This document shows, in pieces, positions 4,037-31,788 of a stretch of DNA of 36,116 nucleotides. The translations under genes were made by a program, and so were the position numbers. The notes below the pieces were generated by a model. That model was given only the letters and a program-made list of their open reading frames with translations. It searched no databases and had not been told where the DNA came from. This DNA comes from a virus (Duplodnaviria; Caudoviricetes). Position 1 is the first letter of the stretch, and each line of letters opens with the position of its first letter. The stretch covers positions 1 through 36,116 of the IMG/VR virus record IMGVR_UViG_3300036546_000221; one strand, given 5' to 3'.

Positions 4037-4315
4037 ATGGAACGCATTGAATTTGCAAAGCCGGTTACTATTGAGGGCACGGAATACACGGGTCTTGACC
4101 TGAATTTCGATAAGCTCACCGGCGACGATATAATCGCCTGCGAGCGCGAGTTTACGGCTACTGGTGGCGTTGCCACGGTGCACGAACTGTGCAAGGGTTT
4201 TCTCGCAATCGTGGCGGCCCGCGCTGCCGGTGTTGCGCCTGATGTAATCCGCGCGTTGCCCGCGCGCGAGTTCAGCAAAGTGACGGTTGTCGCGCAAAAT
4301 TTTTTGCTCGACTAG
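4037..4315 (+). CDS. Tail assembly chaperone (P2 gpE/Mu gp41-like)
   Basis: 92 aa between tube and tape measure; ends NFLLD over a TTTTTTG slippery site. Confidence 0.88.
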   Translation: MERIEFAKPVTIEGTEYTGLDLNFDKLTGDDIIACEREFTATGGVATVHELCKGFLAIVAARAAGVAPDVIRALPAREFSKVTVVAQNFLLD

Positions 4316-13413: not shown

Positions 13414-13489
13414 ACAGGGCGGCATATGCATTGACCGGCAGGACACTGCCGAGTTGCTGCATTATATTGACGCTCTGGAACGGAGGTAG
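13268..13489 (+). CDS. Outer-membrane lipoprotein spanin (Rz1-like)
   Basis: GGAGG then GTG 13268; MKYRKKAAALIVTLLLFSVSVSG-C lipobox; Pro-rich PAPLPPRP. Confidence 0.75.
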   Translation: MKYRKKAAALIVTLLLFSVSVSGCVTTGGQAEPAPLPPRPTLESMTENEQGGICIDRQDTAELLHYIDALERR

Positions 13490-13492
13490 CCT

Positions 13493-13915
13493 ATGGCTGT
13501 TTATAAATGCCAGTTTTTCAACATAAAAGAACTCGTGCCGCGCGCGTTTTACGAGCACTACGGCGATACCGACCGTGCGTGGATGGTATTCGACCAGCGT
13601 GCGTTGCGCGCACTGGACGAACTGCGGCGGGTGTTCGGCGCGTGCACCGTTAACGACTGGCCGTTTGGCGGCACAAATGAATACCGGGGCTACAGGCCGC
13701 CCGGCTGCACGGTAGGCGCTGCGCTGTCCCAGCACCGTTTCGGGCGGGCGTTTGACTGCCATTTCCAATATGCTACGGCTGCCGATGTGCGGCAGTATAT
13801 CCGCGAGGAGCACGCCAACATCGCGGGCCTGATAACCCGCGTTGAGGATAACGTGAGCTGGCTCCATTTCGACACTGGTAACCATTATCCCGGCATTCGG
13901 TTTTTTGCGCCCTGA
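13493..13915 (+). CDS. Endolysin, peptidase M15 family
   Basis: GYR...SQHRFGRAFD...WLHFD zinc-peptidase motifs. Confidence 0.85.
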   Translation: MAVYKCQFFNIKELVPRAFYEHYGDTDRAWMVFDQRALRALDELRRVFGACTVNDWPFGGTNEYRGYRPPGCTVGAALSQHRFGRAFDCHFQYATAADVRQYIREEHANIAGLITRVEDNVSWLHFDTGNHYPGIRFFAP

Positions 13916-16371
13916 CGCTTGCGCTGCCGTGTACGGTATATATGGTGTGCCCATCCGGGCTTGTAACCCCGCTGTTTAGCAATGGCAAGCAAGTCCTGCA
14001 GCGTTTCGGCCTGCCCCTGTTCGCGGCGCATGGCCGCACGGCGTGCCATAATGACGGCTGGGTCTATTTCCTGCAGTTCGCCGTCAACCTCCTCAAGTGC
14101 GCGCGGTTTTGGTGTATACTCATATCCGCATTGCGGGCATTTAGGTGCGGGGTTGTGTACGGCAAAGCACTGCGGGCACTGCTTAAAACGTTCGTCGGCA
14201 TCCTTTTTGCCGCCGCTTTTGCCCTGCTTGCCGTCCAGTGACCATTCGCGCTCCTCCTCGGCCAGCCCGTGCCGTTCGAGGTTCCCGACGTGGTCGAGTA
14301 TAAAGCTGCACGCTTTGCCGGGGTGCGTGCGCAATACACGGCCTACCTGTTGCAGGTGCAGACTGAGGCTGTGCGTAGGGCGCAGCAGGATTGCAGCCGT
14401 CACGACGGGCAGGTCAAAGCCCTCATTGATTATTTCGCAGCTTGTGAGCACCCGTATTGTACCGTTGCCGAGGTCATAAACCCTTTTTTTTCGCTCGTGG
14501 TCCGTGAGCGTGCCGTCAATGGTGGCCGCCGGTATGCAGGCCGCGCGGAACGTCTCGGCAACGTGTTCGGCGTGGGCAACGCTGGCGCAGAACGCGACGG
14601 CAGGTGCGCCGTGGCATATTTTGCGGTAATGTGCCACGGCGTCGCCGGTTATGGTCGGTTTATCCATGCGCGCCGCCGTTTCCCTGCGTGCGAAATCGCC
14701 GCCTTGCTTGCGTATGCCGGACAAATCCGCGCGGCTGGGCGGCGCATAGTATACGGGGCGCGATAAAAAACCGCGCGTTATCAGCTCGTGGACAGGCGGC
14801 CCCAACACCATGTCATCAAACACGCCGCCGCAATCGATACCCAAACCCTGCCCGTCAAGCCGTGCCGGTGTTGCCGTCACGCCCAGCACACGCGCCGCCG
14901 GGTATGCGCTTAAAACCCTGCGCCAGCTGCCTGCAGTGGCGTGGTGGCACTCGTCAACCACAATCAAGTCCGGCGGCGGCGCTATATGTGTACGCCGCAC
15001 AAGCGTCTGCACGCTGGCCACCTGCACCGCGCGCGTATAGTCCGGTGTGTAGCGTGGCGATATTAGCCCGTGGCGTACCCCGCACTCGGTCAGTGTGTCG
15101 CTGGCCTGCCGCAAAAGTTCGTCGCGGTGCACCAGTATATATACGCGGTTGCCCTTGGCGGCTGCCCCGTCGGTTATGTGGGCAAAGCAGACGGTGTTGT
15201 GCGTTACGGTAAAATCGCCCAACAGAAAAAGCCTGTCTGCACCGTCAATTTCGAATCCGTAATACCGGCCAACGCCAACAGGCTCAACGCGTATACCGGT
15301 GCGCAATACGTTTTTTTTCTGTTTGCGTGGCTGGGCCTGCCTGCGTGGCACTCGGCACGGCACCGTATCTAAGTGGCCCGATATGGTTATCGACCAATAT
15401 TCATGACGCGCACCTGTGTTGGTGCAAGTTTTTTTTACAGGACGAACATACGCGGCAAAACCTAGCGACCTAGCGAGGAAAACCGTATCCATAGCAAGCG
15501 CCCGCTGCTTGAAAACTATACTCCAGTGTCCATGGTGCAGGTATCCATCAGTGTCTATCAGGCCAGCCAGTAGTTGTAACCTGTCCTGCCTGCTGGCCGT
15601 CTTGTAAGCGTGCGGAATGTGCTTGTTGAGTATCAAGTCTAGTTCGCCAAGCGCTTTTTTGATGTGGTTGCTTTTGTAGCCACGTCCAACAGCGCTATTG
15701 TTTGGCCTAGTTATTGTGTATTGCGGCACTTTGTCGGTGTCGTGTATGCGTACGTTGTGGCCTATTGATTCAGCATATGCAATCCACTCGGCCACCACCT
15801 CGGCGTCCACGTTGCAAATGCTCGCCGTGCGTGAATTGCCATCACCGAGCCACACGCCAAGGATGTATGGCGGCAGTGGCAATTGCCTTTTTTCGCCCAA
15901 ATCTGGGAAGTCGACACCCGTGCGCCAACCTTTTGCGGCATGCTTGAATTTTTTGCTTGATGATATGTATTCGCTGATAGTTATGTTTGCCACATCGCCA
16001 GCATTAAAACGCTGGCCGCTTGCTGACATAACGCTATTCTTTCCGCTTATAACTAGGCTCAGAACGTGGCTTGCATTAACCGTATACGGCTCGCCCTTTG
16101 TTGGTGTTATGCGGTACATTTCCTCGGTGCCGGTACACTTTGACACAACGCTGCGCGGGCCACTATCAGGCCCCATTAATACATCACCTACTGTTACGTT
16201 TTCTGCTGTCTTAATTGTTCCGTCGTACATAAGCACTGGTGTACCTGCGGCCAGACATTTCCCTCCGCCGGTGCCCAGCACAAGGCACGGAGCTTTACAA
16301 CCCCGTGCGTATGACTGCCGCAGCGCATCAACAGCCCGCCGCTGATAATCGCGTAACTGGTAGCGCATCAC
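13885..16371 (-). CDS. SF2 DEAD/DEAH-box helicase (RadD/UvsW-like) precursor containing an intein
   Basis: LRDYQ Q-motif, GTGGGK|T Walker A, DECHH, TATP, EGFD, QQVGRVLR, C-terminal CPQC/CPQC zinc finger. Confidence 0.92.
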   Translation of the reverse strand: MMRYQLRDYQRRAVDALRQSYARGCKAPCLVLGTGGGKCLAAGTPVLMYDGTIKTAENVTVGDVLMGPDSGPRSVVSKCTGTEEMYRITPTKGEPYTVNASHVLSLVISGKNSVMSASGQRFNAGDVANITISEYISSSKKFKHAAKGWRTGVDFPDLGEKRQLPLPPYILGVWLGDGNSRTASICNVDAEVVAEWIAYAESIGHNVRIHDTDKVPQYTITRPNNSAVGRGYKSNHIKKALGELDLILNKHIPHAYKTASRQDRLQLLAGLIDTDGYLHHGHWSIVFKQRALAMDTVFLARSLGFAAYVRPVKKTCTNTGARHEYWSITISGHLDTVPCRVPRRQAQPRKQKKNVLRTGIRVEPVGVGRYYGFEIDGADRLFLLGDFTVTHNTVCFAHITDGAAAKGNRVYILVHRDELLRQASDTLTECGVRHGLISPRYTPDYTRAVQVASVQTLVRRTHIAPPPDLIVVDECHHATAGSWRRVLSAYPAARVLGVTATPARLDGQGLGIDCGGVFDDMVLGPPVHELITRGFLSRPVYYAPPSRADLSGIRKQGGDFARRETAARMDKPTITGDAVAHYRKICHGAPAVAFCASVAHAEHVAETFRAACIPAATIDGTLTDHERKKRVYDLGNGTIRVLTSCEIINEGFDLPVVTAAILLRPTHSLSLHLQQVGRVLRTHPGKACSFILDHVGNLERHGLAEEEREWSLDGKQGKSGGKKDADERFKQCPQCFAVHNPAPKCPQCGYEYTPKPRALEEVDGELQEIDPAVIMARRAAMRREQGQAETLQDLLAIAKQRGYKPGWAHHIYRTRQRKRQGAKNRMPG
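15196..16257 (-). mobile_element. Intein (354 aa) with LAGLIDADG homing endonuclease
   Basis: Starts CLAAGTPVLMYDG; block B NASHVL; YILGVWLGDG and LLAGLIDTDG; ends DFTVTHN before T(+1); lies between K and T of Walker A. Confidence 0.95.
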
Positions 16372-16568
16372 TGTGCCCGCTTTTCTGCCGCCGCTATGGT
16401 TTCGTCAATTTTTATCAGCACGCGGTATTGCGGGCTGGTGCGGCCAGTTTCCCAGCGGTACCACGTGGAAAACGGCAGGCCGCACCGTTCGAGCAGTGCT
16501 TTTTTGTCCCAGCCGATAGCCGCAGCCCGGCTTTCAAAATCTGTCAATATATCCTTAACAGTCTGCAT
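16368..16568 (-). CDS. Cro-like XRE helix-turn-helix regulator
   Basis: 66 aa; LLERCGLPFSTWYRWETGRTSP; GGAGG RBS; coupled to the helicase start. Confidence 0.8.
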   Translation of the reverse strand: MQTVKDILTDFESRAAAIGWDKKALLERCGLPFSTWYRWETGRTSPQYRVLIKIDETIAAAEKRAQ

Positions 16569-16599
16569 AATGCCTCCGTGTATGGGTTAATTTCGTTGC

Positions 16600-16628
16600 A
16601 CATTAGCAAAGGCACGGCACAATTGCAA
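16600..16628 (-). promoter_or_regulatory. Promoter of the cro-helicase operon
   Basis: TTGCAA-N17-TAATGT. Confidence 0.6.
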
Positions 16629-16654
16629 GGCATAAAAAAAAACAAAAAAACCGC

Positions 16655-16743
16655 TTGCCATTGCTTTGCAGTTTTGCTAGTTATGGTGCCACGGACGGCA
16701 TACAGCCGGACAACACACAACTGAAAAGGAGCAACACACCATG
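16655..16743 (+). promoter_or_regulatory. Repeated promoter-leader module, copy A
   Basis: TTGCCA-N17-TAGTTA, CACGGACGGC..GCCGGAC leader and GGAGCAACACAC RBS; similar to copies at 24024 and 30445. Confidence 0.65.
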
Positions 16744-17982
16744 ACGAAAATAGTTAAATTGACGGCAGAAAACGTAAAGCGGCTGCGCGCCGTTGAAATC
16801 ACCCCCGACGGCAACCTTGTTGTCATTGGTGGCAGGAACGCACAGGGCAAAACCAGCGTGCTTGATTGCATAATGTATGCGCTTGCGGGCGGCAAAGCCT
16901 TGCCCGCAAAGCCGTTGCGTGACGGCGAAAAGAAAGGAAAAATCATTGCAGAGCTTGACGATTTTATAGTTACGCGCACGTTTACCGAGGCGGGCGGCGG
17001 CACGCTCAGGGTCGAAAACAAAGAAGGCGCGCAATTCAAAAGTCCGCAGGCAATACTTGACGGGCTGACTGGTCAGCTGGCCTTTGACCCGCTGGCCTTT
17101 TCCCGCATGGAGCCGCGCAAACAGCTTGACACGCTGCGTGAACTCGTTGGTCTTGATTTCGAGGAATATGACGCCAAACGCAAGGCACTCTACGATGAAC
17201 GCACAGCGGTAAACCGTGATGGCAAGGCCCTCGCCGCGCAATACGATGCCGCGCCACACCACGACGACGCGCCGGAAAATGAAACGCCTCTTTCGGAACT
17301 GCTTGAAGAACAAGCGCGGCTTGATGATGCCCAGCGTGCGCATGACGAGGCTGTGCGCACCTCTGACACGCTTGTTGGTATGGAGGCAGATTTGATTGAT
17401 GACATTGCAGACCTTGAAATGCGCATTGCTGGAAAGCGCGAAAATCTTGACGAGGTGCGCAAAAAAATCAAACGGCAGGCCAAAATTATAACTGAACGAC
17501 CCGATATGGGCGGGCAGCTTGCCGAAATACGCCAGCGTATTGCAACAGCAGACGAGGCCAACCGCAAGGCGCGCGAAAACAAAAAACGCGCCGAGCTCGC
17601 CGCACTGCTTGACGAGAAGCGCGCCGAGTCACATCGGTTGGGCGAGGAAATCAAAGCTATTGATAACTCAAAAGCGGCCAAAATTGCTGCGGCGACGTTC
17701 CCCATTGACGGCCTTTCGATAGGTGACGACGGCGTGCTGTACAATGGGATCCCGCTTTCACAGGCCAGCGCAGCCGAGCAACTTCGCGTTTCTGTCGCCA
17801 TAGGCATAGCGGCAAATCCCAAACTGCGCGTCATGCTCATACGCGACGGCAGTTTGCTTGATGATGAGTCGCTCGCAACCATCGCAAGTATGGCAAACGA
17901 TGCAGACGCTCAGGTGTGGATTGAACGTGTTGGCAAGGGTGCCGAATGCTCGGTCATCATTGAGGACGGCGCCGTCGAGTAG
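16741..17982 (+). CDS. SMC/RecN-like ABC ATPase (AAA_23) with coiled coil
   Basis: ENVKRL, GGRNAQGKTS Walker A, long coiled coil, SQASAAEQ signature, MLIRDGSLLD. Confidence 0.85.
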   Translation: MTKIVKLTAENVKRLRAVEITPDGNLVVIGGRNAQGKTSVLDCIMYALAGGKALPAKPLRDGEKKGKIIAELDDFIVTRTFTEAGGGTLRVENKEGAQFKSPQAILDGLTGQLAFDPLAFSRMEPRKQLDTLRELVGLDFEEYDAKRKALYDERTAVNRDGKALAAQYDAAPHHDDAPENETPLSELLEEQARLDDAQRAHDEAVRTSDTLVGMEADLIDDIADLEMRIAGKRENLDEVRKKIKRQAKIITERPDMGGQLAEIRQRIATADEANRKARENKKRAELAALLDEKRAESHRLGEEIKAIDNSKAAKIAAATFPIDGLSIGDDGVLYNGIPLSQASAAEQLRVSVAIGIAANPKLRVMLIRDGSLLDDESLATIASMANDADAQVWIERVGKGAECSVIIEDGAVE

Positions 17983-18031
17983 TAAACTATGGGGCGGGAA
18001 ACCGCCCTTACATACACAGGAGTAACACACC

Positions 18032-18847
18032 ATGAAACCAGGCATATACCACGGGCTGAGCAACGCGGATTACCACAGCGGCGAGGGCATATCGAAAACC
18101 GGCCTCGACCGCATCAACCGTTGCCCGGCGTTTTACCAGCACTGCAAAACACAACCCCACAAGGAAACCCCCGCGCTTGTTTTTGGGCGCGCGGTGCATA
18201 CCGCCGTGCTTGAGCCGCATCTGTTTGCCGCCGAGTATGCGGTTGTGCCGGATATTGACAGGCGCACAAAGGCGGGCAAGGAGGAGTACGCCGCTTTCAT
18301 CGTCGACAACGGCGACAAAACCATACTGACCGCCGACCAGTACGCACGGGCCGAGGCTATACAGACCGCCGTTTATGCACACCCCGCCGCAGCGGCGTTG
18401 CTTGGCGGGCAGGGGCTTAATGAGGCGAGCATATTCTGGCACGACGAGGCAAGCGGCGTACTGTGTAAGTGCAGGCCGGACAGGCTGCGCGATGACAACA
18501 TCATTGTGGACGTAAAAACAACGACGAACGCGAGCCACGAGCATTTTATACGGGACGCGTACAACTACCGATACCACGTGCAGGCGGCGTACTATATGGA
18601 TGGTGTCGGTGCCGCAACGGGTAACGAGCCGCCAGCCTTTATTTTCCTCGCCGTCGAGAGCGAGCCGCCGCACCTCGTGGCGTGCTACATGGCCGATGAT
18701 GATATGCTGATGTTGGGGCGTGACGAGTACCGCCTGAATCTGGATGCATACGCGGCATGTATGCGCACCGGCGTATGGGGTGGCTATGGCGACAGGGTGC
18801 AGCCGCTGGGGCTGCCCGCGTGGGCACTTAAAAAATTGGGGTTGTAA
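18032..18847 (+). CDS. RecE/exonuclease VIII-like PD-(D/E)XK nuclease (DUF3799)
   Basis: YH..ISKTGL, FGRAVHTAVLEP, KCRPD, DVKTT, YHVQAAYY. Confidence 0.9.
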   Translation: MKPGIYHGLSNADYHSGEGISKTGLDRINRCPAFYQHCKTQPHKETPALVFGRAVHTAVLEPHLFAAEYAVVPDIDRRTKAGKEEYAAFIVDNGDKTILTADQYARAEAIQTAVYAHPAAAALLGGQGLNEASIFWHDEASGVLCKCRPDRLRDDNIIVDVKTTTNASHEHFIRDAYNYRYHVQAAYYMDGVGAATGNEPPAFIFLAVESEPPHLVACYMADDDMLMLGRDEYRLNLDAYAACMRTGVWGGYGDRVQPLGLPAWALKKLGL

Positions 18848-18848
18848 T

Positions 18849-19166
18849 ATGTATCGCGAGATTCCCGTTGACACCGACATTGAACAGTACGAAACGCTGA
18901 TGCGCGTATTGCGGCGCGCATATGCGCAGGCCAGCACGGGCAAGGGCCGGGAACGGCACGCCGCAGAGAACGAACCATTCAGTGAGCAGGTTATTTGCGA
19001 GGTTACACGCCGCCTCGGCACCGGCTACCCGCTGGGGCAGGCTGTCAAAAAAATATACGAATCGCAGCGGCTGGGCGGCCCGCGTGGCGTGCACGAACTG
19101 CTCGGGGCTATAAACTACATTGCCGCCGCCGTTATCGTTATGGAGGAATGTGCCGATGCTGAATAA
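18849..19166 (+). CDS. Phage protein, possibly all-alpha NTP pyrophosphatase-like
   Basis: QASTGKGRERHA...GQAVKKIYE...ELLGAINY; the fold assignment is tentative. Confidence 0.5.
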   Translation: MYREIPVDTDIEQYETLMRVLRRAYAQASTGKGRERHAAENEPFSEQVICEVTRRLGTGYPLGQAVKKIYESQRLGGPRGVHELLGAINYIAAAVIVMEECADAE

Positions 19167-19251
19167 AATTATCTGCCTGCTGCGCGGGCACCGTTGGGTG
19201 GCGTACAAGGGCCGCACGACCTGCCTGCGCTGCGGTAAAACTAACTACTAG
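19156..19251 (+). CDS. DUF1660-like small Cys/His protein (31 aa)
   Basis: MLNKIICLLRGHRW...CLRCGK; GGAGG upstream; absent from the ORF track. Confidence 0.6.
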   Translation: MLNKIICLLRGHRWVAYKGRTTCLRCGKTNY

Positions 19252-19262
19252 GGGGCTATACC

Positions 19263-20213
19263 ATGACAGCAATTAACATACGGACGGCAGAACGCGAGGG
19301 CGCGCGATTGGTTGTGGGTATTGCCGGTGTCAGCGGCAGCGGTAAAACATACACCGCCCTGCAGCTGGCCTACGGCATGGCAAACTACGATGCATCAAAA
19401 ATAGGTTTCCTCGATACCGAAAACCGACGCGGCAGCCTGTATGCCGACGCACTGCGCAACGGTGACGGCGAGGTGCAGCGTTTCATGATAGGCGACCTCT
19501 ATGCCCCGTTCAGCCCGGCGCGATACATTGATGCCATACAGGCGTTTCAGCAGGCGGGCGTTGAGGTGCTCATAATAGACAGCGTGACCCACGAATGGGA
19601 GGGGCCGGGCGGTTGTGATGACATAGCCCACGGCGGCAATGGAAAGATGGCAAACTGGAAACTGGCAAAAGCGCAGCACAAAAAATTCATGACAGCCATG
19701 CTCCAGTGCGACATGCACGTCATATGCTGCATACGTGCCCGCGAAAAAACCGATTTCAGCGACACGAAAAATCCCGTTAAGTTGGGCGTACAGCCGGTGC
19801 AGGAAAAAAACTTTATGTTTGAAATGACCGCATCGTTGCTCATGTGGGACGAGGGCAGGGCGCAACAGGTGTTGAAATGCCCCGCCGAACTGCGGCATAT
19901 ATTGGGGCGCGAAAACGGTTATATCACGCCTGCCGACGGTGCCGCCCTGCGGGCATGGGTTGACGGCGCAAAACAGCTCGACCCCAGCGTTGAACGGTAC
20001 CGCAACCGGCTGCAGAGCGTGACGGACAGGGGCGCCGAGTATGTTAAACAGTGCTGGCAGCAGACACCGGCCAACGTGCGCGGTGCACTTGGCGATGCAT
20101 TCCGCGACCAGCTGTTTGCAGCCGCAACGGCATACGATGAGCAGGCGGCGGCACACGGCGCCAGCACGGACGACATTAACGACAAAATACTCAAAGGGGG
20201 CGGAGATGTATAA
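19263..20213 (+). CDS. Sak4-like (AAA_24) single-strand annealing ATPase
   Basis: GVSGSGKT, LDTENRRG, IIDSVTHEW; next to the RecE-like nuclease. Confidence 0.85.
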   Translation: MTAINIRTAEREGARLVVGIAGVSGSGKTYTALQLAYGMANYDASKIGFLDTENRRGSLYADALRNGDGEVQRFMIGDLYAPFSPARYIDAIQAFQQAGVEVLIIDSVTHEWEGPGGCDDIAHGGNGKMANWKLAKAQHKKFMTAMLQCDMHVICCIRAREKTDFSDTKNPVKLGVQPVQEKNFMFEMTASLLMWDEGRAQQVLKCPAELRHILGRENGYITPADGAALRAWVDGAKQLDPSVERYRNRLQSVTDRGAEYVKQCWQQTPANVRGALGDAFRDQLFAAATAYDEQAAAHGASTDDINDKILKGGGDV

Positions 20214-20451
20214 TTTTAACGTGCGCTCCGGGCGGCCCGAGTGCCCGGTGTCAATGACGTTGTTATTGTTCATGGTTGCCGTACTTTTCCTGTGTGTGGT
20301 GAATATTGCGCATGGTAATTTTTTTCTTGCAGCAATGAATTTTTTCACATGCTCGGTTTCGGCGCAGCTTGCCCGCGATGCGCAAAAGGCGCATATTGCG
20401 GCAATCCATTTTCAGCGGATATTAGATGTGTCGGGGGTGCTCAATGTCTAA
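20206..20451 (+). CDS. Small membrane protein
   Basis: Two hydrophobic segments; overlaps both neighbouring genes. Confidence 0.5.
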   Translation: MYNFNVRSGRPECPVSMTLLLFMVAVLFLCVVNIAHGNFFLAAMNFFTCSVSAQLARDAQKAHIAAIHFQRILDVSGVLNV

Positions 20452-20695
20452 CCCCACACCCCAAGAGATACAGGACATATTGCACTATATCGGCGAGCAG
20501 GTGTGCCTCGCAATTGAAAAACACCCCAAATTTATTGCTGGCACGGCTACAGCGCCGACAATCCTACTCGAAGAGCTGGGCGAGGCGTGCCAAGCAATAA
20601 ACGATGGCGATATGCAGGACGCCGTTACCGAATTGCGGCAGGCGGCGTGCGTTATAGTCCGCTGGATACACAGCATCGAGCAAGGGGGCGTATAG
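20444..20695 (+). CDS. MazG-like nucleotide pyrophosphohydrolase
   Basis: ILLEELGEACQA...TELRQAACV (EExGE...ELxQ). Confidence 0.7.
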   Translation: MSNPTPQEIQDILHYIGEQVCLAIEKHPKFIAGTATAPTILLEELGEACQAINDGDMQDAVTELRQAACVIVRWIHSIEQGGV

Positions 20696-20697
20696 CC

Positions 20698-20889
20698 GTG
20701 TACCATATACCCACAAAGGCCACGGCGGTTTATACCGGCGGCGGCATGCGGCTGCAGGGGCGTATATATACCCGTGATAAATTTGGGGTTTATGTGGCGC
20801 TGGAGCCTAACGCGCACGACCTATACACGGTAGGGCCGGTGCCGTATGCCGTTTTCTTCGCTAGCGGTTCGGGTTGGAGTTTGCTATAA
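20698..20889 (+). CDS. Hypothetical protein
   Basis: GTG start after AAGGGGG; fills the gap up to the hairpin. Confidence 0.45.
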   Translation: MYHIPTKATAVYTGGGMRLQGRIYTRDKFGVYVALEPNAHDLYTVGPVPYAVFFASGSGWSLL

Positions 20890-20920
20890 AAAAAGCCCCG
20901 TGCACAATGGCACGGGGCTT
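20888..20920 (-). terminator. Intrinsic terminator
   Basis: 11-bp stem followed by a T run on the minus strand. Confidence 0.75.
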
Positions 20921-20952
20921 AGCGCGGAGCGCGGACAACGGAAGCAACACAC
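20888..20952 (-). ncRNA. Predicted small regulatory RNA 1 (~65 nt) complementary to the early-gene RBS motif
   Basis: Minus-strand TTGCGT-N17-TACAGT (20987-20959); no ORF; ends in the terminator AAGCCCCGTGC-loop-GCACGGGGCTTTTTTT. Confidence 0.55.
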
Positions 20953-20992
20953 AAGCAAACTGTATGCCAAAAAAAGAAAGGACGCAACACAA

Positions 20993-21388
20993 ATGTCGGA
21001 AAAAATCATACAGACACAAATTTTGAAGGCCCTTGGCGCGCGGCGTGATGTGCGCCTGTTCCGGCAGAACGTTGGTAATGGATTTATGGGGCGTGTTGTC
21101 GGGCAGGGTGACGGCATAGTCACGCTCGAGAACCCGCGCCGCGTTCAGTTTGGGTTGTGCCCTGGCAGTCCGGACCTCGTAGGCTGGCAGGCCGTCACTA
21201 TAACACCTGATATGGTTGGTAAAAAGTTTGCGGTTTTTACGGGCATAGAGGTCAAAGCACCGCGCGGGCGCGTGCGCAACGAACAGGAAAATTTCATCCG
21301 CGTTTTGCGCAGCTTTGGCGGCACGGCAGGTATAGCCCGCAGCGTTGCCGATGCCGAGTCGCTGCTCATCGGCGGGGGTCTGCGCTGA
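20993..21388 (+). CDS. VRR-NUC nuclease
   Basis: MSEKIIQTQI, FRQNVG, GSPDLVG, GIEVKA...EQENF. Confidence 0.9.
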   Translation: MSEKIIQTQILKALGARRDVRLFRQNVGNGFMGRVVGQGDGIVTLENPRRVQFGLCPGSPDLVGWQAVTITPDMVGKKFAVFTGIEVKAPRGRVRNEQENFIRVLRSFGGTAGIARSVADAESLLIGGGLR

Positions 21389-24039
21389 TGCAGCAGGTTA
21401 ATAAAATCGAATTTGAAAAAATAAAAGCGGCGGCGAACATCAACCCGTTGCCCATCGTTGAGCGGCTAGTCCCCGGCGGCACAATACGCGGCGCTGAATA
21501 CGTCGCACGTCTGCGCGCCGATGACCACGACCCCAGCTTTAAATTTAATTTGACCGATGGCGTATGGTCTGATTTTGGCGCAAACATCAGCGGCGATATT
21601 ATAGACCTGTACGCGCACGTGCACGGCTACGACAACACGGGCACGGCGGCGCTCGCGTTGGGCGATGAAATAAACGCCTTGCCGCCCGATGCCCGCAAGC
21701 CGCTGCAGGTTGACAGGCGCGACCGCTATACACACAGGCCGGTGCCCCAAAATCCGCCCGCGTTTAACCTGCAGCACTGGCAGCACGGTTTCCCCCGTCC
21801 CGAAAACGTATGGACGTACCGCGACGCAGACGGGCGCCCTATAGGCTATACATGCCGGTTCGACCTGCCCGGTGGAGGCAAAGATGTTTTTCCCGCAACT
21901 TGGTGTTATGACAGCGTGAAACGTATGGAGCGCTGGGCGTGGAAGGGTTTTTCCAACCCCCGCCCGCTGTATGGGCTGGATATAATAGCCGGTCTGGCAC
22001 AGCAATACCCCGTGCTGGTTGTTGAGGGCGAGAAAACATGCGAGGCCGCGCGCAGGCTGTTGCCTAGCGTGCCCTGTATAACGTGGCCCGGCGGAAGCAA
22101 GGCCGTTAAACATATTGATTTTTCACCGCTTGCTGGCCGCCGGGTATTTATATGGCCAGACGCCGACCCGCAGGGCGAAGAGGCAGCAAACGCCATTGCG
22201 GGCCGCCTCCGTAATGTGGCGGCTGAGGTGAAAACCGTTACCCCGCCCGTTGGTGTGGCTAAAGGATGGGATTTGGCCGACGCGCTGGCCGAGGGCTGGA
22301 CGTCGGAACAGACCATTGATTACCTGCGCACGCACACCGCAGCCGTTGACAGTACCGCCGCAGAGATTGCGGTACAGCGGCATGATGACAGGCGCGCAAC
22401 AGCAACATGCGTCGACCGTGGCGGCTGGCCGTTTACGCCGCTTGGCTACGACCACGGGACATATTTTTACCTGTCAACCCTGACGGGGCAGGTTGAAAAG
22501 ATAACCAGCACCGCGCACACGGGTGCAAACCTGCTGCGGCTGGCTGGTCTAGACTGGTGGGAGATGAACTACCCGGGCAAAACCGGCGCATCATGGACAC
22601 GGGCCGCCGATGCCTGCATGCAGGCGTGCCATGAGCGAGGCGTGTATGACCCCGACAGGGTGCGCGGGCGTGGCGCATGGGAGGATGACGGGCGCGTCGT
22701 CCTGCACCTCGGCGACCAATTGGTCGTTGACGGAGAGGGCTACTGTATTGCCGACATACCCGGCAGCAGGTATGTTTACGAAATGTCCCGCCCGTTGGGG
22801 CTGGAATGGGACAGCATCGTGCCGCTTGGGGCGGGCGAGGCCGTGCAATTAATGATGTTGTGTAATATGTTGTCGTGGGAAAAACCAGTTTATGGCATGT
22901 TGCTGGCCGGTTGGTGTGTGGTAGCGCCCGTATGCGGGGCGTTGTCGTGGCGTCCCCACATATGGGTGACGGGGCCGTCCGGTGCCGGTAAAAGCTGGAC
23001 ATATGACAACATATTGCGGCGCACGCTTGGGAAATTTGCCCTCGCCTGCCAGTCAAACAGCACCGAGGCAGGGCTGCGGCAGGCGCTGAAGGCAGACGCC
23101 ATGCCGATAATTTTTGACGAAGCCGAGGGCGAGGACCAGCAGGACAGGCGGCGGATACAAAACGTCCTCGAGTTGATGCGGCAGGCCAGCAGTGAAAACG
23201 GCGCGGCCATAATAAAGGGGAGCGCAAACGGCGAGGCCATGCAGTACCGCATCCGCAGCTGCTTTGCGTTTTCGAGCATAGGTGTGTCGGCAGTACAGAA
23301 AGCGGACGTAAGCCGCCTCGCTGTGCTGTCCCTGCGCAAATATGACGGGCCGGACAGGGCCGAACGGTTCCGCGATATACAGCGGTTCCATGCAGCGCTG
23401 TTTACGGGCGATTTCGTGCCCCGCCTCCACAAACGAACAATCGGGCTGGTGCCTACGCTGTTGCATAATGCCGATGTTTTTGCCGACGCCGCCGCGCTTG
23501 AGCTCGGCAGCCGCCGCTATGGTGACCAAGTGGGCGCGCTGCTGGCCGGTGCCTACAGCCTGCAAAGTGATGCGCGCGTAACACCCGCCGAGGCGGCGGA
23601 GTGGGTTGCGGGGCAGGAGTGGGGTGAAACGATGGACAGCGCCGACGACGACGACGAAAACCGTTGCATTGAGCTGGTTTTGCACAAACAGTTGCGCGTT
23701 GAAACACAGAGCGGGGTTGTTACCCGCACCGTTGCCGAGCTGGCACGCGTTGCGCTGAAAATGCGCTACGACACCGTGCAGGCGCTTGATGCTATAGTGG
23801 CAAACGATACGCTCGCACGGCACGGCGTATGCGTTGACGCCGATGGTTATATATGCATTAGCGACAGTCACCCCGCCATTGCCGACACGCTGCGCAACAG
23901 CGCATGGGCGCAGACATGGCCGCGCCTGCTGCGCCGTATAAATGGCGCAACACAGCGTGATGATGTTGATTTTGGCGGCAAGGCCGGAAGGGCAACCGCA
24001 ATACCCGCCGTCGAGCTTTTTTCTTGCAAAAGTGCTTGA
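21388..24039 (+). CDS. Primase-helicase (degenerate zinc-binding domain, TOPRIM, P-loop helicase)
   Basis: RPLYGL, VVEGEK, WPDAD, KGWDLAD; GPSGAGKS Walker A; IIFDEAE Walker B. Confidence 0.9.
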   Translation: MQQVNKIEFEKIKAAANINPLPIVERLVPGGTIRGAEYVARLRADDHDPSFKFNLTDGVWSDFGANISGDIIDLYAHVHGYDNTGTAALALGDEINALPPDARKPLQVDRRDRYTHRPVPQNPPAFNLQHWQHGFPRPENVWTYRDADGRPIGYTCRFDLPGGGKDVFPATWCYDSVKRMERWAWKGFSNPRPLYGLDIIAGLAQQYPVLVVEGEKTCEAARRLLPSVPCITWPGGSKAVKHIDFSPLAGRRVFIWPDADPQGEEAANAIAGRLRNVAAEVKTVTPPVGVAKGWDLADALAEGWTSEQTIDYLRTHTAAVDSTAAEIAVQRHDDRRATATCVDRGGWPFTPLGYDHGTYFYLSTLTGQVEKITSTAHTGANLLRLAGLDWWEMNYPGKTGASWTRAADACMQACHERGVYDPDRVRGRGAWEDDGRVVLHLGDQLVVDGEGYCIADIPGSRYVYEMSRPLGLEWDSIVPLGAGEAVQLMMLCNMLSWEKPVYGMLLAGWCVVAPVCGALSWRPHIWVTGPSGAGKSWTYDNILRRTLGKFALACQSNSTEAGLRQALKADAMPIIFDEAEGEDQQDRRRIQNVLELMRQASSENGAAIIKGSANGEAMQYRIRSCFAFSSIGVSAVQKADVSRLAVLSLRKYDGPDRAERFRDIQRFHAALFTGDFVPRLHKRTIGLVPTLLHNADVFADAAALELGSRRYGDQVGALLAGAYSLQSDARVTPAEAAEWVAGQEWGETMDSADDDDENRCIELVLHKQLRVETQSGVVTRTVAELARVALKMRYDTVQALDAIVANDTLARHGVCVDADGYICISDSHPAIADTLRNSAWAQTWPRLLRRINGATQRDDVDFGGKAGRATAIPAVELFSCKSA

Positions 24040-24124
24040 CGGCGGCAAGGCGATTTGCTACTTATTAAGCACGCAAGGCGGCGAGGGCCGCACGGAACAA
24101 TAAACACATGGAGCAGCACACATG
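24024..24124 (+). promoter_or_regulatory. Repeated promoter-leader module, copy B
   Basis: TTGCAAAAGTGCTTGACGG (19 bp identical to copy C); TTGACG-N17-TACTTA; GCGGC/GCCGC hairpin; GGAGCAGCACAC RBS. Confidence 0.7.
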
Positions 24125-24304
24125 GCATACGCAATTAAGAACAAGAAAACTGGGCTTTACTTCGCTGGGTTCAGTGGCGGCGAGGCCGTTTGGGACGACA
24201 CCCCATGCACATACGCCGACAGGCTGCACGCACAGACGCAAGCCGACGCGCTGCGCATGTTTGACAGGGGCGTACAGCGCAAGCCGGTGCGGGTGGTGCA
24301 GTAA
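24122..24304 (+). CDS. Hypothetical early protein
   Basis: Good RBS; first gene after promoter B. Confidence 0.65.
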   Translation: MAYAIKNKKTGLYFAGFSGGEAVWDDTPCTYADRLHAQTQADALRMFDRGVQRKPVRVVQ

Positions 24305-24395
24305 CACGACGGCGCCGCCAAACGGCGGCGCTGCTATCGAGGCCCGCGCGGTGCCAGCGTAGCAAAACCGCGCAAAACACACAGGAGCAACACAC

Positions 24396-24605
24396 ATGAA
24401 AACGACCGAACGCGTACACGTCTGTAAAAACTGCGAGTCTATCGTTGATGTTGACGATGCCAGCCGATGCTCGTTTTGCGGCACGCCTGCACTTGTTATG
24501 CCCCGCAACACGGCCAGTAGCATAATATGGAACGAAAACATCGAACGCATGATGCGCTGGTGCAAAGCCGGGCGCATCATGCCGGATGCGGAGGGCGGGA
24601 AATGA
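24396..24605 (+). CDS. Zinc-ribbon hypothetical protein
   Basis: CKNC...CSFC; AGGAG RBS. Confidence 0.6.
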   Translation: MKTTERVHVCKNCESIVDVDDASRCSFCGTPALVMPRNTASSIIWNENIERMMRWCKAGRIMPDAEGGK

Positions 24606-24862
24606 GCATATCGTGCGACTGCTACTACGACGGCGATAAATACGACGAGTACTATTATGTACCCGACAACTTTACAAAACTTGAAACCAAGAGGCGCAAG
24701 CGTTGCATTAGCTGTAAAGGGCTTATGAAGCATGGCGAAACCTGCGTCCGGTTTAACCGCGCACGGGCTGCACGCTGCGAATATGAAGAAAACAGGTTCG
24801 GCGAAGCGGTTCGGCTTGCGCCCGGAAAAGCCACAGGGAAACAACATGTCCCGCAAGCGTAA
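24602..24862 (+). CDS. Cys-containing hypothetical protein
   Basis: ATGA coupling; SCDC and RKRCISC motifs. Confidence 0.55.
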   Translation: MSISCDCYYDGDKYDEYYYVPDNFTKLETKRRKRCISCKGLMKHGETCVRFNRARAARCEYEENRFGEAVRLAPGKATGKQHVPQA

Positions 24863-25643
24863 AACCAGCTGTCCTGTATGCGGCGGGCCGAAGTTTGCGG
24901 GCAGCCCGTGCCGGTCGCGCGTATGCATAGCGCTGCGCAAGCTGCCGCCCACCGCTGTACGCGATTGGCGTATTATGGCCGTTCCATCATCGCTTGCGCT
25001 TATAATCGGCGCGGCGGTTGTTGAGCAGCACGTTGATGATGCCGCCCGCGCAGCAGCGCAACGCATAGTTAAATGGCATGACAAGGTGATGGCCGCCACA
25101 CGCGAGCAATTGCCCGTTACGATGGATTTTATCAACACGCAACGGCATTTTATAGAACGGCTGTTGGCAACGACGTGGGGTGAGGGCAAGCCCAGCCATA
25201 TTGTGCGGGTTGCCGATGCTACACAGCGGCTCATGTTGGACACGATAAGCCACCTCGAGGACAAGGGCATACCCACGGAGACAATAGCCCCGTGGCGGTG
25301 GCAGGAGTGCGCCCTGAACGCCCTCTTGCGCCTGTTTGACGCGGACGGCGAACAGATAGACGCGGCGGAAGAGGACTATTTCACGCTGTACGCCGCAATA
25401 TGGGGTGAACGTGAGCCGGTGCGCCCTGTTGTAAAACTGTACGAGCTTGGCGGGCGGTTCATCGTGGCGGCATACGGCAGGCAGGAGGCACGCGACATTA
25501 TCCGGCGTGAGTACGGGCTGGTACGGCTGGACGTTTCCGGTTGTGCAGGCGGCGCGAAAATCTACTACGGGAACGAGGAGATAACATATGGCGAACTCAA
25601 AACACGGCTTGCACACGGGGCCGTTATACCGATAGGGGGTTAA
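24846..25643 (+). CDS. Hypothetical protein with N-terminal Cys cluster
   Basis: CPVC..C....C; long ORF in operon order. Confidence 0.6.
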   Translation: MSRKRKTSCPVCGGPKFAGSPCRSRVCIALRKLPPTAVRDWRIMAVPSSLALIIGAAVVEQHVDDAARAAAQRIVKWHDKVMAATREQLPVTMDFINTQRHFIERLLATTWGEGKPSHIVRVADATQRLMLDTISHLEDKGIPTETIAPWRWQECALNALLRLFDADGEQIDAAEEDYFTLYAAIWGEREPVRPVVKLYELGGRFIVAAYGRQEARDIIRREYGLVRLDVSGCAGGAKIYYGNEEITYGELKTRLAHGAVIPIGG

Positions 25644-25644
25644 A

Positions 25645-25896
25645 ATGCTTTGCAAAGAATGCCCGGAACTGTTACCGTGCACAACGCCTGATGGCACTGA
25701 TTGCTACGGTGCAAAACTGTGGGGCGGCGGCGGGCGCGTTATGCCCGTGCGGCTCATAAGCCGCTGTAAATACCCCGAAAAAGCCAAGGAGGCGGCTATG
25801 CGCGGATACAAGCGCCGCAACATGCAGGCGGCGCAACCCAAGGGACAGCCTGTAAAACAGGCAAATCTCATTAACATGGGGGGCGGTTATGAGTGA
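25645..25896 (+). CDS. Hypothetical Cys-rich protein
   Basis: GGGGG RBS; tightly packed between neighbours. Confidence 0.55.
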   Translation: MLCKECPELLPCTTPDGTDCYGAKLWGGGGRVMPVRLISRCKYPEKAKEAAMRGYKRRNMQAAQPKGQPVKQANLINMGGGYE

Positions 25897-26464
25897 TAAT
25901 GTGCAGGAACACGTCCGGCAGGTTTACCGCTGCGCCCACGTACCCGATGTCGAGCTGATTATGCACATTGACCCACGGGGCAGGCGCAATCATGTGAGTA
26001 TTGAAATCGCCATAGGCGACTACATGAATAGCACGAGCGCCGACATTGTGCTGTCAAACGGCGATGCCGTAGACCTCGCACGGCGCATCCTCGCGCATTT
26101 CGGCGGCGAAAAACGGCTGAAACGTGTCTACCTCGCCGGGCCATACTCGCATACCGACCCCGAAGTGCGCGCCGCTAGGGCTGCGGCACTGAACCGCAAG
26201 GCGGCGTGGCTCATGATGCAGGGGTTGTGCGTTTTTTCGCCTATTACACACGGCGTAGCGCTGCTGGATTATTTCCCGTACAATGAGCGCGGCTGGGCGT
26301 TCTGGGGCGAGCAGGACAGGGCGCACCTGTTGGCATGCGATGAATTGCACGTTTTATGCCTCGACGGCTGGCGCGAATCGCGCGGCGTAACCGATGAAAT
26401 CCAATGGGCAACTGAGGCCGGTATGCCCGTAATATACCACGACTGCGAGGGACGCGATGAATAA
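25889..26464 (+). CDS. DUF1937 / nucleoside 2-deoxyribosyltransferase-like protein with N-terminal extension
   Basis: VYLAGPYSH, VFSPITH, LDGWRESRGVTDEIQWA. Confidence 0.8.
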   Translation: MSDNVQEHVRQVYRCAHVPDVELIMHIDPRGRRNHVSIEIAIGDYMNSTSADIVLSNGDAVDLARRILAHFGGEKRLKRVYLAGPYSHTDPEVRAARAAALNRKAAWLMMQGLCVFSPITHGVALLDYFPYNERGWAFWGEQDRAHLLACDELHVLCLDGWRESRGVTDEIQWATEAGMPVIYHDCEGRDE

Positions 26465-26969
26465 AGTTATTATTATTGGCAGGCTGGGCGCTGACGTCGA
26501 GCTGCGGTACACGCAGGCCGGTGCGCCGGTTGCTAATTTCAGCGTAGCGACCGACGAGAGCTATACCGACCAGCAGGGCAACAAGGTGGAAAAAACCGAG
26601 TGGCACCGCATAATCGTGTTCCAACGGCAGGCCGAAAACTGCGCGCAGTATATCGGCAAGGGTAGCCTCGTGTGCGTTGAGGGCAGCATCCAGACGCGCC
26701 AGTGGCAGGACCAGAACGGACAGCAGCGGTATACCACGGAAATCAAAGCCCAGCGCGTCCAGTTCCTCAGTACCCGCAGCGACGGCCAGCAACAGCAACC
26801 GCAGCAGGGCGCACAGCCGCAGCAGAACACCAGACAAGCACCGGCACAACAACGGCAGCAGGCACCGGCACCGGGTGGCGGGTTTAACGGCCCGGCAAAC
26901 AACACGGCGCCCGCCTTCCCGTCCGAAGTCGGCGGAATGGACGACGTGCCTTTTAGCTCAGAGGTTTAG
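26457..26969 (+). CDS. ssb: Single-stranded DNA-binding protein
   Basis: MNKVIIIGRLG, TEWHRI, GKGSLVCVEG, Gln-rich linker, DDVPF. Confidence 0.97.
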   Translation: MNKVIIIGRLGADVELRYTQAGAPVANFSVATDESYTDQQGNKVEKTEWHRIIVFQRQAENCAQYIGKGSLVCVEGSIQTRQWQDQNGQQRYTTEIKAQRVQFLSTRSDGQQQQPQQGAQPQQNTRQAPAQQRQQAPAPGGGFNGPANNTAPAFPSEVGGMDDVPFSSEV

Positions 26970-26996
26970 GAAAACCTCTATAAAAACCTACTAGAC

Positions 26997-27039
26997 ACCA
27001 AACCCCTTTTAAAGCAATATGCCTTAAAAGGGGTTTGGT
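26997..27039 (+). promoter_or_regulatory. RBS-sequestering hairpin of the HNH gene
   Basis: Perfect 16-bp inverted repeat ACCAAACCCCTTTTAA / TTAAAAGGGGTTTGGT ending at the base before ATG 27040. Confidence 0.75.
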
Positions 27040-27441
27040 ATGAAAGAAAAGTGTTGTTTTAAGTGTGGCTTGGTTAAGCCGCTTACAGAGTTTTACAAGC
27101 ACCCAAAGATGGCAGACGGACATGTAAACAAATGCAAAGAGTGCAACAAGAGGGATGTCCGCAAAAACAGGCGCGATAAAGTTGAGTACTATCGAGAATA
27201 TGACAGGGAGAGGGGCAACAGGCAAGGGGTGGACGTTGTGCGCAAATACAGGGCAAAGAACCAAGCAAAGTATCGTGCTCACTGTAAACTGAACAATGCT
27301 TTGCGTTATGGGAAAATACAAAAACAGCCATGCGAAATATGCGGAAGCACAGAAAACCTTGAAGCTCACCATGAAGACTACTCGCGGCCTCTGGATGTCA
27401 TTTGGCTTTGCTCGGCCCACCATTCATGGTTACATGGATAA
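27040..27441 (+). CDS. Free-standing HNH-type endonuclease (AT-rich, probably mobile)
   Basis: CFKC...CKEC; CEICG...HHEDYSRPLDVIWLCSAHHSWLH; visibly lower GC than flanks. Confidence 0.8.
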   Translation: MKEKCCFKCGLVKPLTEFYKHPKMADGHVNKCKECNKRDVRKNRRDKVEYYREYDRERGNRQGVDVVRKYRAKNQAKYRAHCKLNNALRYGKIQKQPCEICGSTENLEAHHEDYSRPLDVIWLCSAHHSWLHG

Positions 27442-27491
27442 TAAATAACAACCGGAGCGTACACAATGCACAACAGGCGGCAGGGATAGAC

Positions 27492-27713
27492 GTGTTGCGG
27501 CCAGAACAGCGGCGGGCGCTGTTTGCCATGTTGCCGCGTGTAGGCTGCCCACGTGCGCCACGTTGTGCACGCATCGCATGGCTGAACGGGTGGCGCTTTG
27601 CAAACGCCATGCCGCCGGTCGCAAGCATGAACGATTTTACACCACAAGAGGTCGCGCTATTACAGCGCGAAATATACTTGACAACCCACAGCGGAGGACA
27701 ACATGACTATTAG
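27492..27713 (+). CDS. Hypothetical protein
   Basis: In-frame GTG after CAGGGA; start uncertain. Confidence 0.35.
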   Translation: MLRPEQRRALFAMLPRVGCPRAPRCARIAWLNGWRFANAMPPVASMNDFTPQEVALLQREIYLTTHSGGQHDY

Positions 27714-27888
27714 CACCGAACAAAAAAAAGTTATGGACCGCATAACCCTGCTCGCCGAACAGCTGCGCGCCGAGTTTGCAACCATCGAGCGCAGGCACAA
27801 CAAGGCCGCCGCGCGGCGCGCCCGCAAGTTAACCCTCGAGCTGGATGCGCTCCACAAACAGTTCCGAAAACTGTCAATGTCAATGTAA
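27703..27888 (+). CDS. Histone H1-like (Hc1-family) small basic protein
   Basis: NKAAARRARKLTLELDALHKQFRKLS resembles the Hc1 motif NKAAGxRARKxxLELxKxxKxFRKxS; GGAGG RBS. Confidence 0.75.
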   Translation: MTISTEQKKVMDRITLLAEQLRAEFATIERRHNKAAARRARKLTLELDALHKQFRKLSMSM

Positions 27889-27894
27889 CCATGC

Positions 27895-27924
27895 AAGCCC
27901 CGTACCGAACGGGGCTTTTTTTTT
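27895..27924 (+). terminator. Intrinsic terminator
   Basis: AAGCCCCGT-ACCGA-ACGGGGCTT followed by a T run. Confidence 0.85.
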
Positions 27925-27969
27925 ACCCGCGCATGTGCTACGCTGCAAAAAACCGCAAGGGGGGTTGTT

Positions 27970-28944: not shown

Positions 28945-28969
28945 AAAAGCCCCCACGTAACGTGGGGGC
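28943..28969 (-). terminator. Intrinsic terminator at the convergence point
   Basis: GCCCCCACG-loop-CGTGGGGGC plus T6 on the minus strand. Confidence 0.8.
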
Positions 28970-29006
28970 CAACCTAGGTTGCCCTTACGGGACTTGGATG
29001 TGGTAT
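28943..29006 (-). ncRNA. Predicted small RNA 2 (~64 nt)
   Basis: Minus-strand TTGACG-N17-TAATGT (29041-29013); no ORF; CCC-GUAA-GGG and CAACCUAGGUUG stems; then a terminator. Confidence 0.55.
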
Positions 29007-29037
29007 TTTTTTACATTACGGCATCATAAAATAATCG

Positions 29038-29199: not shown

Positions 29200-29201
29200 A
29201 G

Positions 29202-29555: not shown

Positions 29556-29557
29556 AA

Positions 29558-29884: not shown

Positions 29885-29971
29885 GGTGTTTACTCCCTGC
29901 CCCGCACCATATTGAGGGCTAATGTTTCCGCCGGGCGCGCACTACACCCGCCCGGCTTCTTGGTTTTTCCG

Positions 29972-30349
29972 CTACCAACGGCTTGCAACAAATTCGGCTA
30001 TTTTTTCAGCGTATGCGGCAATGTTGCGGCATGTTATGCGCTGTGTTGGCCGCCTGCACTCGCCGCGGTAAATGGCCGTTACAAACCAGCCAGTTGCCCC
30101 GCGCTCAAGCGTAAAATGTGTGCTTTCAGGCGTGCCCTTATATGCGCCGGGGAACTCCTGTGCGTTCATATCGCAATCAAAAACAAGTCCCGCCCAGTCT
30201 TTTTTGTACATCAAACCCTTGAGGCGCTGTTCAATACCGCCGATAGCCCATTCAACATCTGCCGCAACGATTGTGCGCACACTGGCGCGGGCCTGCGCGT
30301 CGTTAATGGCGGCGGTCAGTTTCTCTGTGCGCGTTACGTTGATTTTCAT
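29972..30349 (-). CDS. Hypothetical early protein
   Basis: First gene after promoter C; AAGGAG RBS. Confidence 0.75.
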   Translation of the reverse strand: MKINVTRTEKLTAAINDAQARASVRTIVAADVEWAIGGIEQRLKGLMYKKDWAGLVFDCDMNAQEFPGAYKGTPESTHFTLERGATGWFVTAIYRGECRRPTQRITCRNIAAYAEKIAEFVASRW

Positions 30350-30445
30350 GATATTGCTCCTTGCTTTTTATGTCCCGTCCGGCTTTCCCGCCGTCCGTGA
30401 CTAATAAATAGCAAAACAGCAAAACACCGTCAAGCACTTTTGCAA
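30347..30445 (-). promoter_or_regulatory. Repeated promoter-leader module, copy C
   Basis: TTGCAAAAGTGCTTGACGG; TTGACG-N17-TATTTA; CACGGACGGC..AGCCGGAC; AAGGAGCAA RBS. Confidence 0.7.
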
Positions 30446-30479: not shown

Positions 30480-30485
30480 CGGTGG

Positions 30486-30924: not shown

Positions 30925-30950
30925 AATAGCCTCCGGTTTTTAGGGGTTGT

Positions 30951-31471: not shown

Positions 31472-31788
31472 TACTGCGCTACCTCCGTGGCGCCGGGCAC
31501 CAACGGCTCATAATTGTATGTCCTGAGCGCCTCGCTTGTGCTGTGGGTGATTATTTCCTTTGCGGCCCAGGAATCGAGGCTGCTGTTTTTGGCTATATGT
31601 TTGGCACCGGCATGCATAGCCTCAGCAGCCGCGCAGGCATACAACCATGCCAGCGTTGCGACAATATCGCGCTCGTCGGCGTCGGCTGAAACTTTGATAC
31701 CATCGGCACGCGCGTTGGTTTTAACGCTGCCGTCGGCCTGCAGCTCAACATTTATGTATATATTGCCATTTGCCATCGTTGCCCCCAT
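31471..31788 (-). CDS. Hypothetical protein
   Basis: TAATG coupling to the next gene. Confidence 0.6.
   Translation of the reverse strand: MGATMANGNIYINVELQADGSVKTNARADGIKVSADADERDIVATLAWLYACAAAEAMHAGAKHIAKNSSLDSWAAKEIITHSTSEALRTYNYEPLVPGATEVAQ

Follow-up and report, generated by a model that had tools for sequence, protein, structure and literature searches.

Gene content and organization of the window

The window, by which we mean the whole stretch of DNA analysed here, is a 36,116-base linear virus record (G000, 73% complete) that occurs in shale-gas metagenomes; partial relatives were seen in runs from the subsurface, soil and sludge. The first 13.9 kb (1-13.9 kb) contain lysis genes and a contractile-tail module, and the minus strand carries a helicase gene and an XRE-type HTH gene (16368..16568), the latter divergent from an early promoter at 16655-16683. 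The plus-strand early operons encode an SMC-like ATPase, a RecE-like nuclease, an AAA ATPase, VRR-NUC, a primase-helicase, SSB and an Hc1-like protein, with the VRR-NUC and primase-helicase genes at 20993..24039. The terminase and head region that is missing from the window is supplied by a close relative, record G006. No tRNA was found in the window, nor any Rfam family at gathering score. The sequence-only reading had described a phage with no visible CI. An XRE-type HTH protein is in fact encoded, although searches of both records, G000 (73% complete) and G006, detected neither an integrase nor an S24 repressor domain.

Three early promoters resemble one another (16655-16683 and 24036-24064 on the plus strand, 30433-30405 on the minus strand; TTGACG/TTGCCA-N17-TAnTTA), and their -10 elements are without the usual last T. 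TTGCAA/TTGC repeats lie beside them, as they do in phages with a related HTH protein, and these may be operators. Several other features of the genome deserve mention. The helicase (13885-16371, minus) contains an intein with a homing endonuclease (Hint and Hom_end domains), and the terminase of G006 appears to carry an intein too. Two tandem σ54-like motifs lie ahead of the terminase region of the close relative (L257:5918-5969, minus). The last gene of an early operon, at 27703-27888, encodes a histone H1-like protein of the Hc1 family. Direct and inverted AT-rich repeats at 33170-33450 are origin-like, and a 10-base tandem array is found near the packaging end (35965-36114).

A candidate RNA unit on the minus strand ahead of VRR-NUC

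Directly after the stop codon of a 63-aa plus-strand gene lies an intrinsic terminator of the minus strand (20888..20920) with an 11-bp stem and a U7 tail. A U-tailed terminator had been noticed here from the sequence alone, and it proved to be the best terminator-like match in 14000-33000 (11 pairs, of which 8 are G-C, and T7). It is an orphan, facing the minus strand without a minus-strand gene that feeds it; the closest likely minus-strand genes are 8 kb off and have their own terminator at 28970. The RNA predicted to end at this terminator is about 65 nt long (20888..20952, minus), its 5' end being a presumed one. We confirmed the sequence that had been given for an RNA running from 20952 to 20888, and all other sequences and coordinates in the sequence-only reading were right. 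The unit folds with z = -4.07, and the fold consists of the terminator and a weak 5' stem. Two modules can be told apart ahead of the terminator: module 1 (20941..20952, minus), a seed that matches the RBS motif of early genes, and module 2 (20926..20943, minus), 18 nt that match the Shine-Dalgarno (SD) sequence and AUG of the tail-assembly chaperone gene.

The candidate unit is preceded by a weak σ70-like promoter, TTGCGT-N17-TACAGT (20959..20987, minus). Although its elements lie where they had been placed before (TTGCGT at 20987-20982 and TACAGT at 20964-20959, with a spacer of 17), only 7 of the 12 positions match the consensus and the promoter is absent from the list produced by our consensus scan. 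Furthermore, this -35 element is not independent evidence, because TTGCGT is simply what the RBS spacer of VRR-NUC reads on the opposite strand, and the candidate promoter is unlike the phage's three strong early promoters. Overlapping it at 20969-20954 on the minus strand is an exact match to the σ54 -24/-12 consensus pattern; there are three exact matches to this pattern in the window, where 0.2 are expected, and the other two are inside late genes. Since σ54 elements sit at -24 and -12 (PMC4591121), +1 would be expected near 20943, and a start at this point would drop most of the early-gene seed. The candidate RNA may have either promoter type and either 5' end.

Indirect signs of conservation of the locus in relatives

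The signs of conservation of the locus are indirect. Contigs from three of four runs (two studies) contain the intergenic stretch without gaps, while the wider stretch differs from the window at 49 of 899, 21 of 1442 and, in the third, 118 of 1238 bases. In one relative, an over-called 180-aa frame (P0127) shows no change in the 39 codons covering 20876-20992, whereas of the 10 codons immediately upstream 5 differ; the 39 identical codons fix 59 of the 106 bases of 20887-20992. A relative with an 88% identical VRR-NUC keeps a peptide that is compatible with both promoter readings, and P0130 is compatible with the σ54 -24 bases. Protein scans with SMC, primase and VRR-NUC and a search with a 20-nt pattern returned no close relatives of the sRNA locus, or only distant ones. 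None of the datasets listed as containing the stretch is an RNA dataset, which carries no information on expression.

Module 1 matches the ribosome-binding sites of early genes

Module 1 consists of 12 nt complementary to the SD-to-AUG spacer that is common to the first genes of the early operons. A search of both strands (72 kb) gave three copies of AGCAACACAC, which all lie on the plus strand, at 16730, 20943 and 24386; GGAGTAACACAC at 18019 and GGAGCAGCACAC at 24110 were present as claimed, as was CGGACAAC at 16707 and 20932, which has one additional copy in coding sequence at -7347. The predicted target sites on the plus strand comprise two in the leader of the SMC-like ATPase gene (16707..16739; gene 16741-17982) and one each ahead of the RecE-like exonuclease gene (18019..18030; gene 18032-18847), gene 24122 (24110..24121) and gene 24396 (24384..24395). 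The leader of gene 30349 (30345..30385, minus) is a weaker target. Two further RBSs are possible targets, that of the HNH-like gene 31471 (31475..31488, minus; 14 bp with 4 G-U, weak when structure is counted) and, weakly, that of the endolysin gene (13479..13490, plus; 12 bp with 3 G-U). Two-site pairing had been proposed for the SMC leader (leader A). Pairing of 12 + 8 bp is indeed predicted there (-24.2 kcal/mol), but GUUGUCCG is better explained by the chaperone target described below.

The 32 nt ahead of the terminator (20952-20921) form a continuous helix of at least 12 bp with 9 of 49 gene starts, against a shuffle mean of 1.1. Nine starts were reached in 1 of 3000 dinucleotide shuffles and in none of 3000 in which the xTCC cores were preserved; these 49 starts were picked by hand according to how strong their Shine-Dalgarno sequence is, at a stage when the motif was already known. 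When 54 starts were called automatically instead, 2 of 500 shuffles matched the top-5 score. The antisense strands of true early leaders scored similarly on a top-8 measure (-26.1 for 24369-24400 and -23.5 for 16717-16748, compared with -24.2 for the candidate). Since the antisense of real early leaders pairs equally well, an sRNA and a copied leader are not distinguished by the early matches alone. Relatives also gain or lose DNA at these places, with 373 letters inserted inside leader A (16721-16727) and a skip at 24089-24308, which suggests that the early-leader motifs may mark module or gene-cassette boundaries as well.

The longest predicted helix covers the start of the tail-assembly chaperone gene

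The sequence-only reading saw a repressor of early genes only. This was not borne out, in that the longest predicted helix is formed with a late gene, encoding a gpG-like tail-assembly chaperone (phrog_3140; 4037..4315, plus). Nucleotides 20943-20926 of the candidate pair with 4025-4042, from the SD through the AUG to codon 2, in 18 continuous base pairs of which 3 are G-U, and 3 more are gained if a bulge is allowed. Shuffled sequences of two types had a longest helix of 18 bp in 14 and in 24 of 3000 cases, and the chaperone helix is the best single helix among 18,042 genome windows. In a comparison with 341 terminator-ended units from 2.7 Mb of related loci, it scored -36.9 against a best of -28.9 and a median of -16.1, an extreme score that is favoured by the window having more starts (55) than most of the screened loci. 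Predicted binding at the chaperone site lies between -27 and -31.5 kcal/mol. The Hc1 gene at 27703 was also considered as the main target and falls behind 4037, with 10 bp and -19.6 kcal/mol.

The chaperone site is identical to the window RNA gene at 15 of 18 positions in the window, at 16 of 18 in L182 and at 17 of 18 in L181, the shared tail region of these relatives being 91% (L182) and 97% (L181) identical to that of the window. None of 400 shuffles reached 17 and 6 of 400 reached 16, whereas the 15 of 18 found in the window is ordinary on its own, since 58 of 100 shuffles reach 15 somewhere. The chaperone site has drifted away from the RNA in the window genome. Each difference at the site in L181 and L182 gives a G-U pair, and the single G-U of L181 is opposite the U of the AUG; as just two helix positions vary, both by transitions, this compatibility is weak evidence.

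It had been foreseen that the segment might be a decayed plus-strand copy of leader A. The early matches are compatible with such an origin, but the 17 of 18 match at the chaperone start in L181 is not explained by it, and a copied early leader therefore cannot account for module 2. On the plus strand, the copies of both modules are without a start codon, reading ACG and AAG where the targets have ATG, as would fit modules that must not serve as ribosome sites in early mRNA.

In all three genomes, the chaperone gene contains the heptamer TTTTTTG (at 4300 in the window), and its -1 frame has no stop before the tape-measure gene. At 4300-4360 of the window, the slippery site of this frameshift is conserved and the stem downstream is invariant. 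The hairpin at 4327-4351, past the chaperone stop codon, resembled a terminator through which repression could become polar. The larger stem, however, starts 8 nt downstream of the slippery site and is more simply a frameshift stimulator, and we do not claim polarity.

Analogous units in Pseudomonas-type phages

An unannotated unit of promoter, seed and terminator was present in six distantly related Pseudomonas-type phages, which were found through the AAA ATPase. Five are known as loci (minus strand; L007:2131-2235, L008:2098-2205, L009:436-528, L010:2023-2142 and L011:401-508), and the sixth is the cultured phage Amjad_SA (L258:22250-22346; record 44249-44345), described as lytic (PMC12968170). 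Neither an integrase nor S24 was detected in any of the four analogue genomes tested. The RNA gene is about 65 nt long, at 44279-44345 of the Amjad_SA record, and a divergent gene, primase-like in the loci where it was read, has the unit at its 3' end. None of the six units has an Rfam match, and a word search of the available text of the Amjad_SA paper did not return 'small RNA', 'non-coding' or 'terminator' (PMC12968170).

The promoter of these units is of σ70 type and conserved (TTGAC(A/T)-N17-TA(G/A)CCT). The terminator keeps all 6 of its core pairs (36 of 36 cells), 2 pairs being changed on both sides. The seed of 10 nt is invariant or changed once, and in each phage 3 to 5 early RBSs have a motif to which it is complementary. 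Scores of the units against their own genomes were compared with 300 shuffles for the four whole genomes (P = 0.003, 0, 0 and 0.013) and with 500 shuffles for the remaining two (P = 0.01 and 0.03). At one homologous target, the base opposite the variable seed position is A in L008 and L010, and G in both L009 and L011; the pair is U-G in L009, and in L011 the seed itself carries C, so that the pair follows a path from U-A to U-G to C-G. Covariation of seed and RBS in related phages had been suggested as a check; a joint change of seed and target was seen in one analogue, L011, but two other sites in that phage keep A and mismatch its changed seed. A model built from the Pseudomonas-phage unit (R1) found no match in the window at E <= 1, and these units are therefore analogues that are not detectably homologous to the candidate.

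Further candidate units in G038, G039, L003, L086, L038 and L054 were not significant against shuffles, and one in G037 was marginal (P = 0.06). Several regions of this kind have features of their own. L003:828-890 (minus) is syntenic with the Pseudomonas-type RNA and has the same terminator with a different, C-rich seed. L038:13590-13670 and L054:3984-4056 (both minus) are orphan terminator units divergent from an HTH-helicase block, and they share an identical 23-nt stretch. In L067, a phage with an integrase, a terminator-ended 3' region follows a lysis-type gene (14445-14525, minus; P = 0.06), and a 9-mer within it complements the RBSs of five early genes on both strands.

Interpretation of the locus

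On the basis of these comparisons, it is probable that 20888-20987 is the gene of a two-module sRNA of about 65 nt, predicted to act in trans and to repress the phage's own genes. A trans-acting RNA with several targets had already been proposed; it is still the best reading, and the case is stronger than was argued, but the targets are not early genes alone.

Four other explanations were weighed. The stretch might encode no functional RNA and be simply the plus-strand leader of VRR-NUC, built like the other early intercistronic regions in the order stop codon, GC hairpin, tandem GGA..CAACAC motif and SD. The hairpin would then only stabilise the mRNA or stop stray antisense transcription, and the motif would reflect a preference for unstructured leaders or a start-associated protein site. 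The leaders of 16741, 18032, 24122 and 24396 also have tandem ACAC motifs, two of them after a hairpin, and GGAGCAACAC spacers are used by related phages too; the equally good pairing of antisense early leaders with other early starts and the gain and loss of DNA at early leaders in relatives point the same way. Such a leader nevertheless leaves unexplained how a tail-gene start at a distance of 17 kb comes to match at 17 of 18 positions, why the U7 tail serves the minus strand alone, and the existence of promoter-bearing analogues with seed-target covariation, and we regard this explanation as unlikely.

Somewhat more doubtful still is an RNA made from the σ54 promoter that would start near 20943, act mainly on the chaperone and tie tail assembly to a host signal, the early match being promoter DNA. 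The exact match to the σ54 consensus at 20969-20954 is consistent with this proposal, the expected +1 is the first base of the 18-bp helix, and with a start near 20943 only 4037 (1 of 49 starts) retains a helix of at least 12 bp. Against it, the two other exact matches inside late genes indicate that the motif is commoner here than the shuffles say, TTGC recurs near all early promoters, and the 12-bp early match is left unexplained.

We think it quite improbable that the RNA is instead a cis-antisense RNA in the manner of λ OOP, acting on the early mRNA ahead of VRR-NUC and primase with its matches in trans being secondary. Its position opposite an early operon and directly before replication genes, its own terminator and its perfect complementarity in cis would all suit such a role; however, action in cis needs no match to distant starts, and none of the six analogues faces the leader of an early operon. 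Finally, it is scarcely credible that the plus strand is the functional one, its three GGA motifs luring away a protein, of CsrA/RsmA type or encoded by the phage, from the leaders to which it also binds, since, despite GGA repeats at 7-nt spacing (20926-20942), no plus-strand promoter or U-tailed terminator bounds the stretch and such a decoy does not need extended identity to one specific RBS.

As a two-module sRNA, the candidate would be made from the weak σ70-like promoter and would block 30S loading at the first genes of the early operons and at the chaperone. The recombination and early programme would be damped in this way, and the RNA may set a threshold for tail assembly; a blocked chaperone start would lead to loss of G and of its frameshift product GT. 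Early mRNA that crosses the locus upstream of VRR-NUC is the exact complement in cis of the candidate RNA and would titrate it. As no integrase or CI was found, lytic-cycle timing or a carrier state seems likelier than classical lysogeny, and we do not read the RNA as a replacement for CI or the phage as temperate. We put forward more tentatively, as possible but somewhat short of probable, a general scheme in which phages without integrase or CI tag chosen RBSs and encode one RNA against the tag. In the present phage the second module would gate the early programme together with tail assembly, with early mRNA as a sponge, making up an RNA-only timing or carrier-state switch that would have arisen more than once.

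The phage antisense RNAs described in the sections of a review covered here act on one operon (C4, sar, OOP, aQ and STnc6030) or on host genes (PreS and DicF) (PMC12197685). If the present reading is true, a single RNA recognising both the RBS tag that dispersed early genes have in common and the start of the tail chaperone gene would be a new way of timing the phage programme, and it would provide a testable answer to why some phages have start-associated motifs. A literature search by title and abstract start, covering mainly freely accessible papers, listed none that describes such an arrangement; the 38 uncharacterised phage sRNAs tabulated in the review's supplement lie outside this search. 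With an analogue in the cultured phage Amjad_SA, the early-gene part is testable now.

Comparison with known systems

The CI RNA of P4 is an antisense RNA comparable to C4, and both had been cited as precedents for the candidate; by sequence, fold and targets, the candidate belongs with neither. In the C4 antisense RNA of P1 and P7, short segments pair at two sites over the RBS, and the RNA, which has three stem-loops and is cut from a precursor by RNase P, controls the ant operon of a temperate phage (PMC5320573, PMC12197685). The candidate is like C4 in that two-site pairing covering the RBS, with 12 + 8 bp, is predicted on the 16741 leader. Unlike C4, with its three stem-loops and a' and b' in the loops, it has one firm hairpin, and it appears from its sequence to be self-contained, with its own promoter and terminator. 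Moreover, in place of an antirepressor operon, its predicted targets are recombination, small early and tail genes, in a phage where no integrase or CI was found. The Rfam C4 models gave no match at gathering score in the window, and C4 was not among the 13 matches at E <= 10.

The best Rfam match of the candidate is to the toxic double-hairpin sRNAs of betaproteobacteria (RF02278), which have CU-rich anti-RBS stretches (PMC5688073). The candidate is similar in size and has CU-rich anti-RBS stretches as well, but its score of 28.4 bits, which is due to the terminator, falls below the cut-off of 50, and it has no counterpart of the first hairpin, placing it outside this family.

OOP of λ is a short RNA encoded next to replication genes. 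It is an antisense unit with its own promoter that acts on the overlapping cII mRNA (PMC12197685). Both it and the candidate are thus short antisense units by replication genes, whereas the notable matches of the candidate are to distant starts.

Cluster K mycobacteriophages have a private motif at the RBSs of non-structural genes, and the authors of that work did not decide between an RNA and a protein as its binding partner (PMC3203893). In contrast to these start-associated sequences, those of the candidate phage are accompanied by a matching antisense unit. In the right parts of the two cluster K genomes searched, Angelica has a single reversed copy of the motif, inside gene 92, with no sRNA-like unit there, and Pixie has none; nothing extends the sRNA reading to cluster K.

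For the tail target, the nearest case is STnc6030 of phage BTP1, which acts on a tail-gene mRNA and brings about superinfection exclusion (PMC12197685). STnc6030 is antisense to the tailspike gene itself, whereas the candidate would act on the chaperone start in trans, through 18 nt, and would act on early genes as well.
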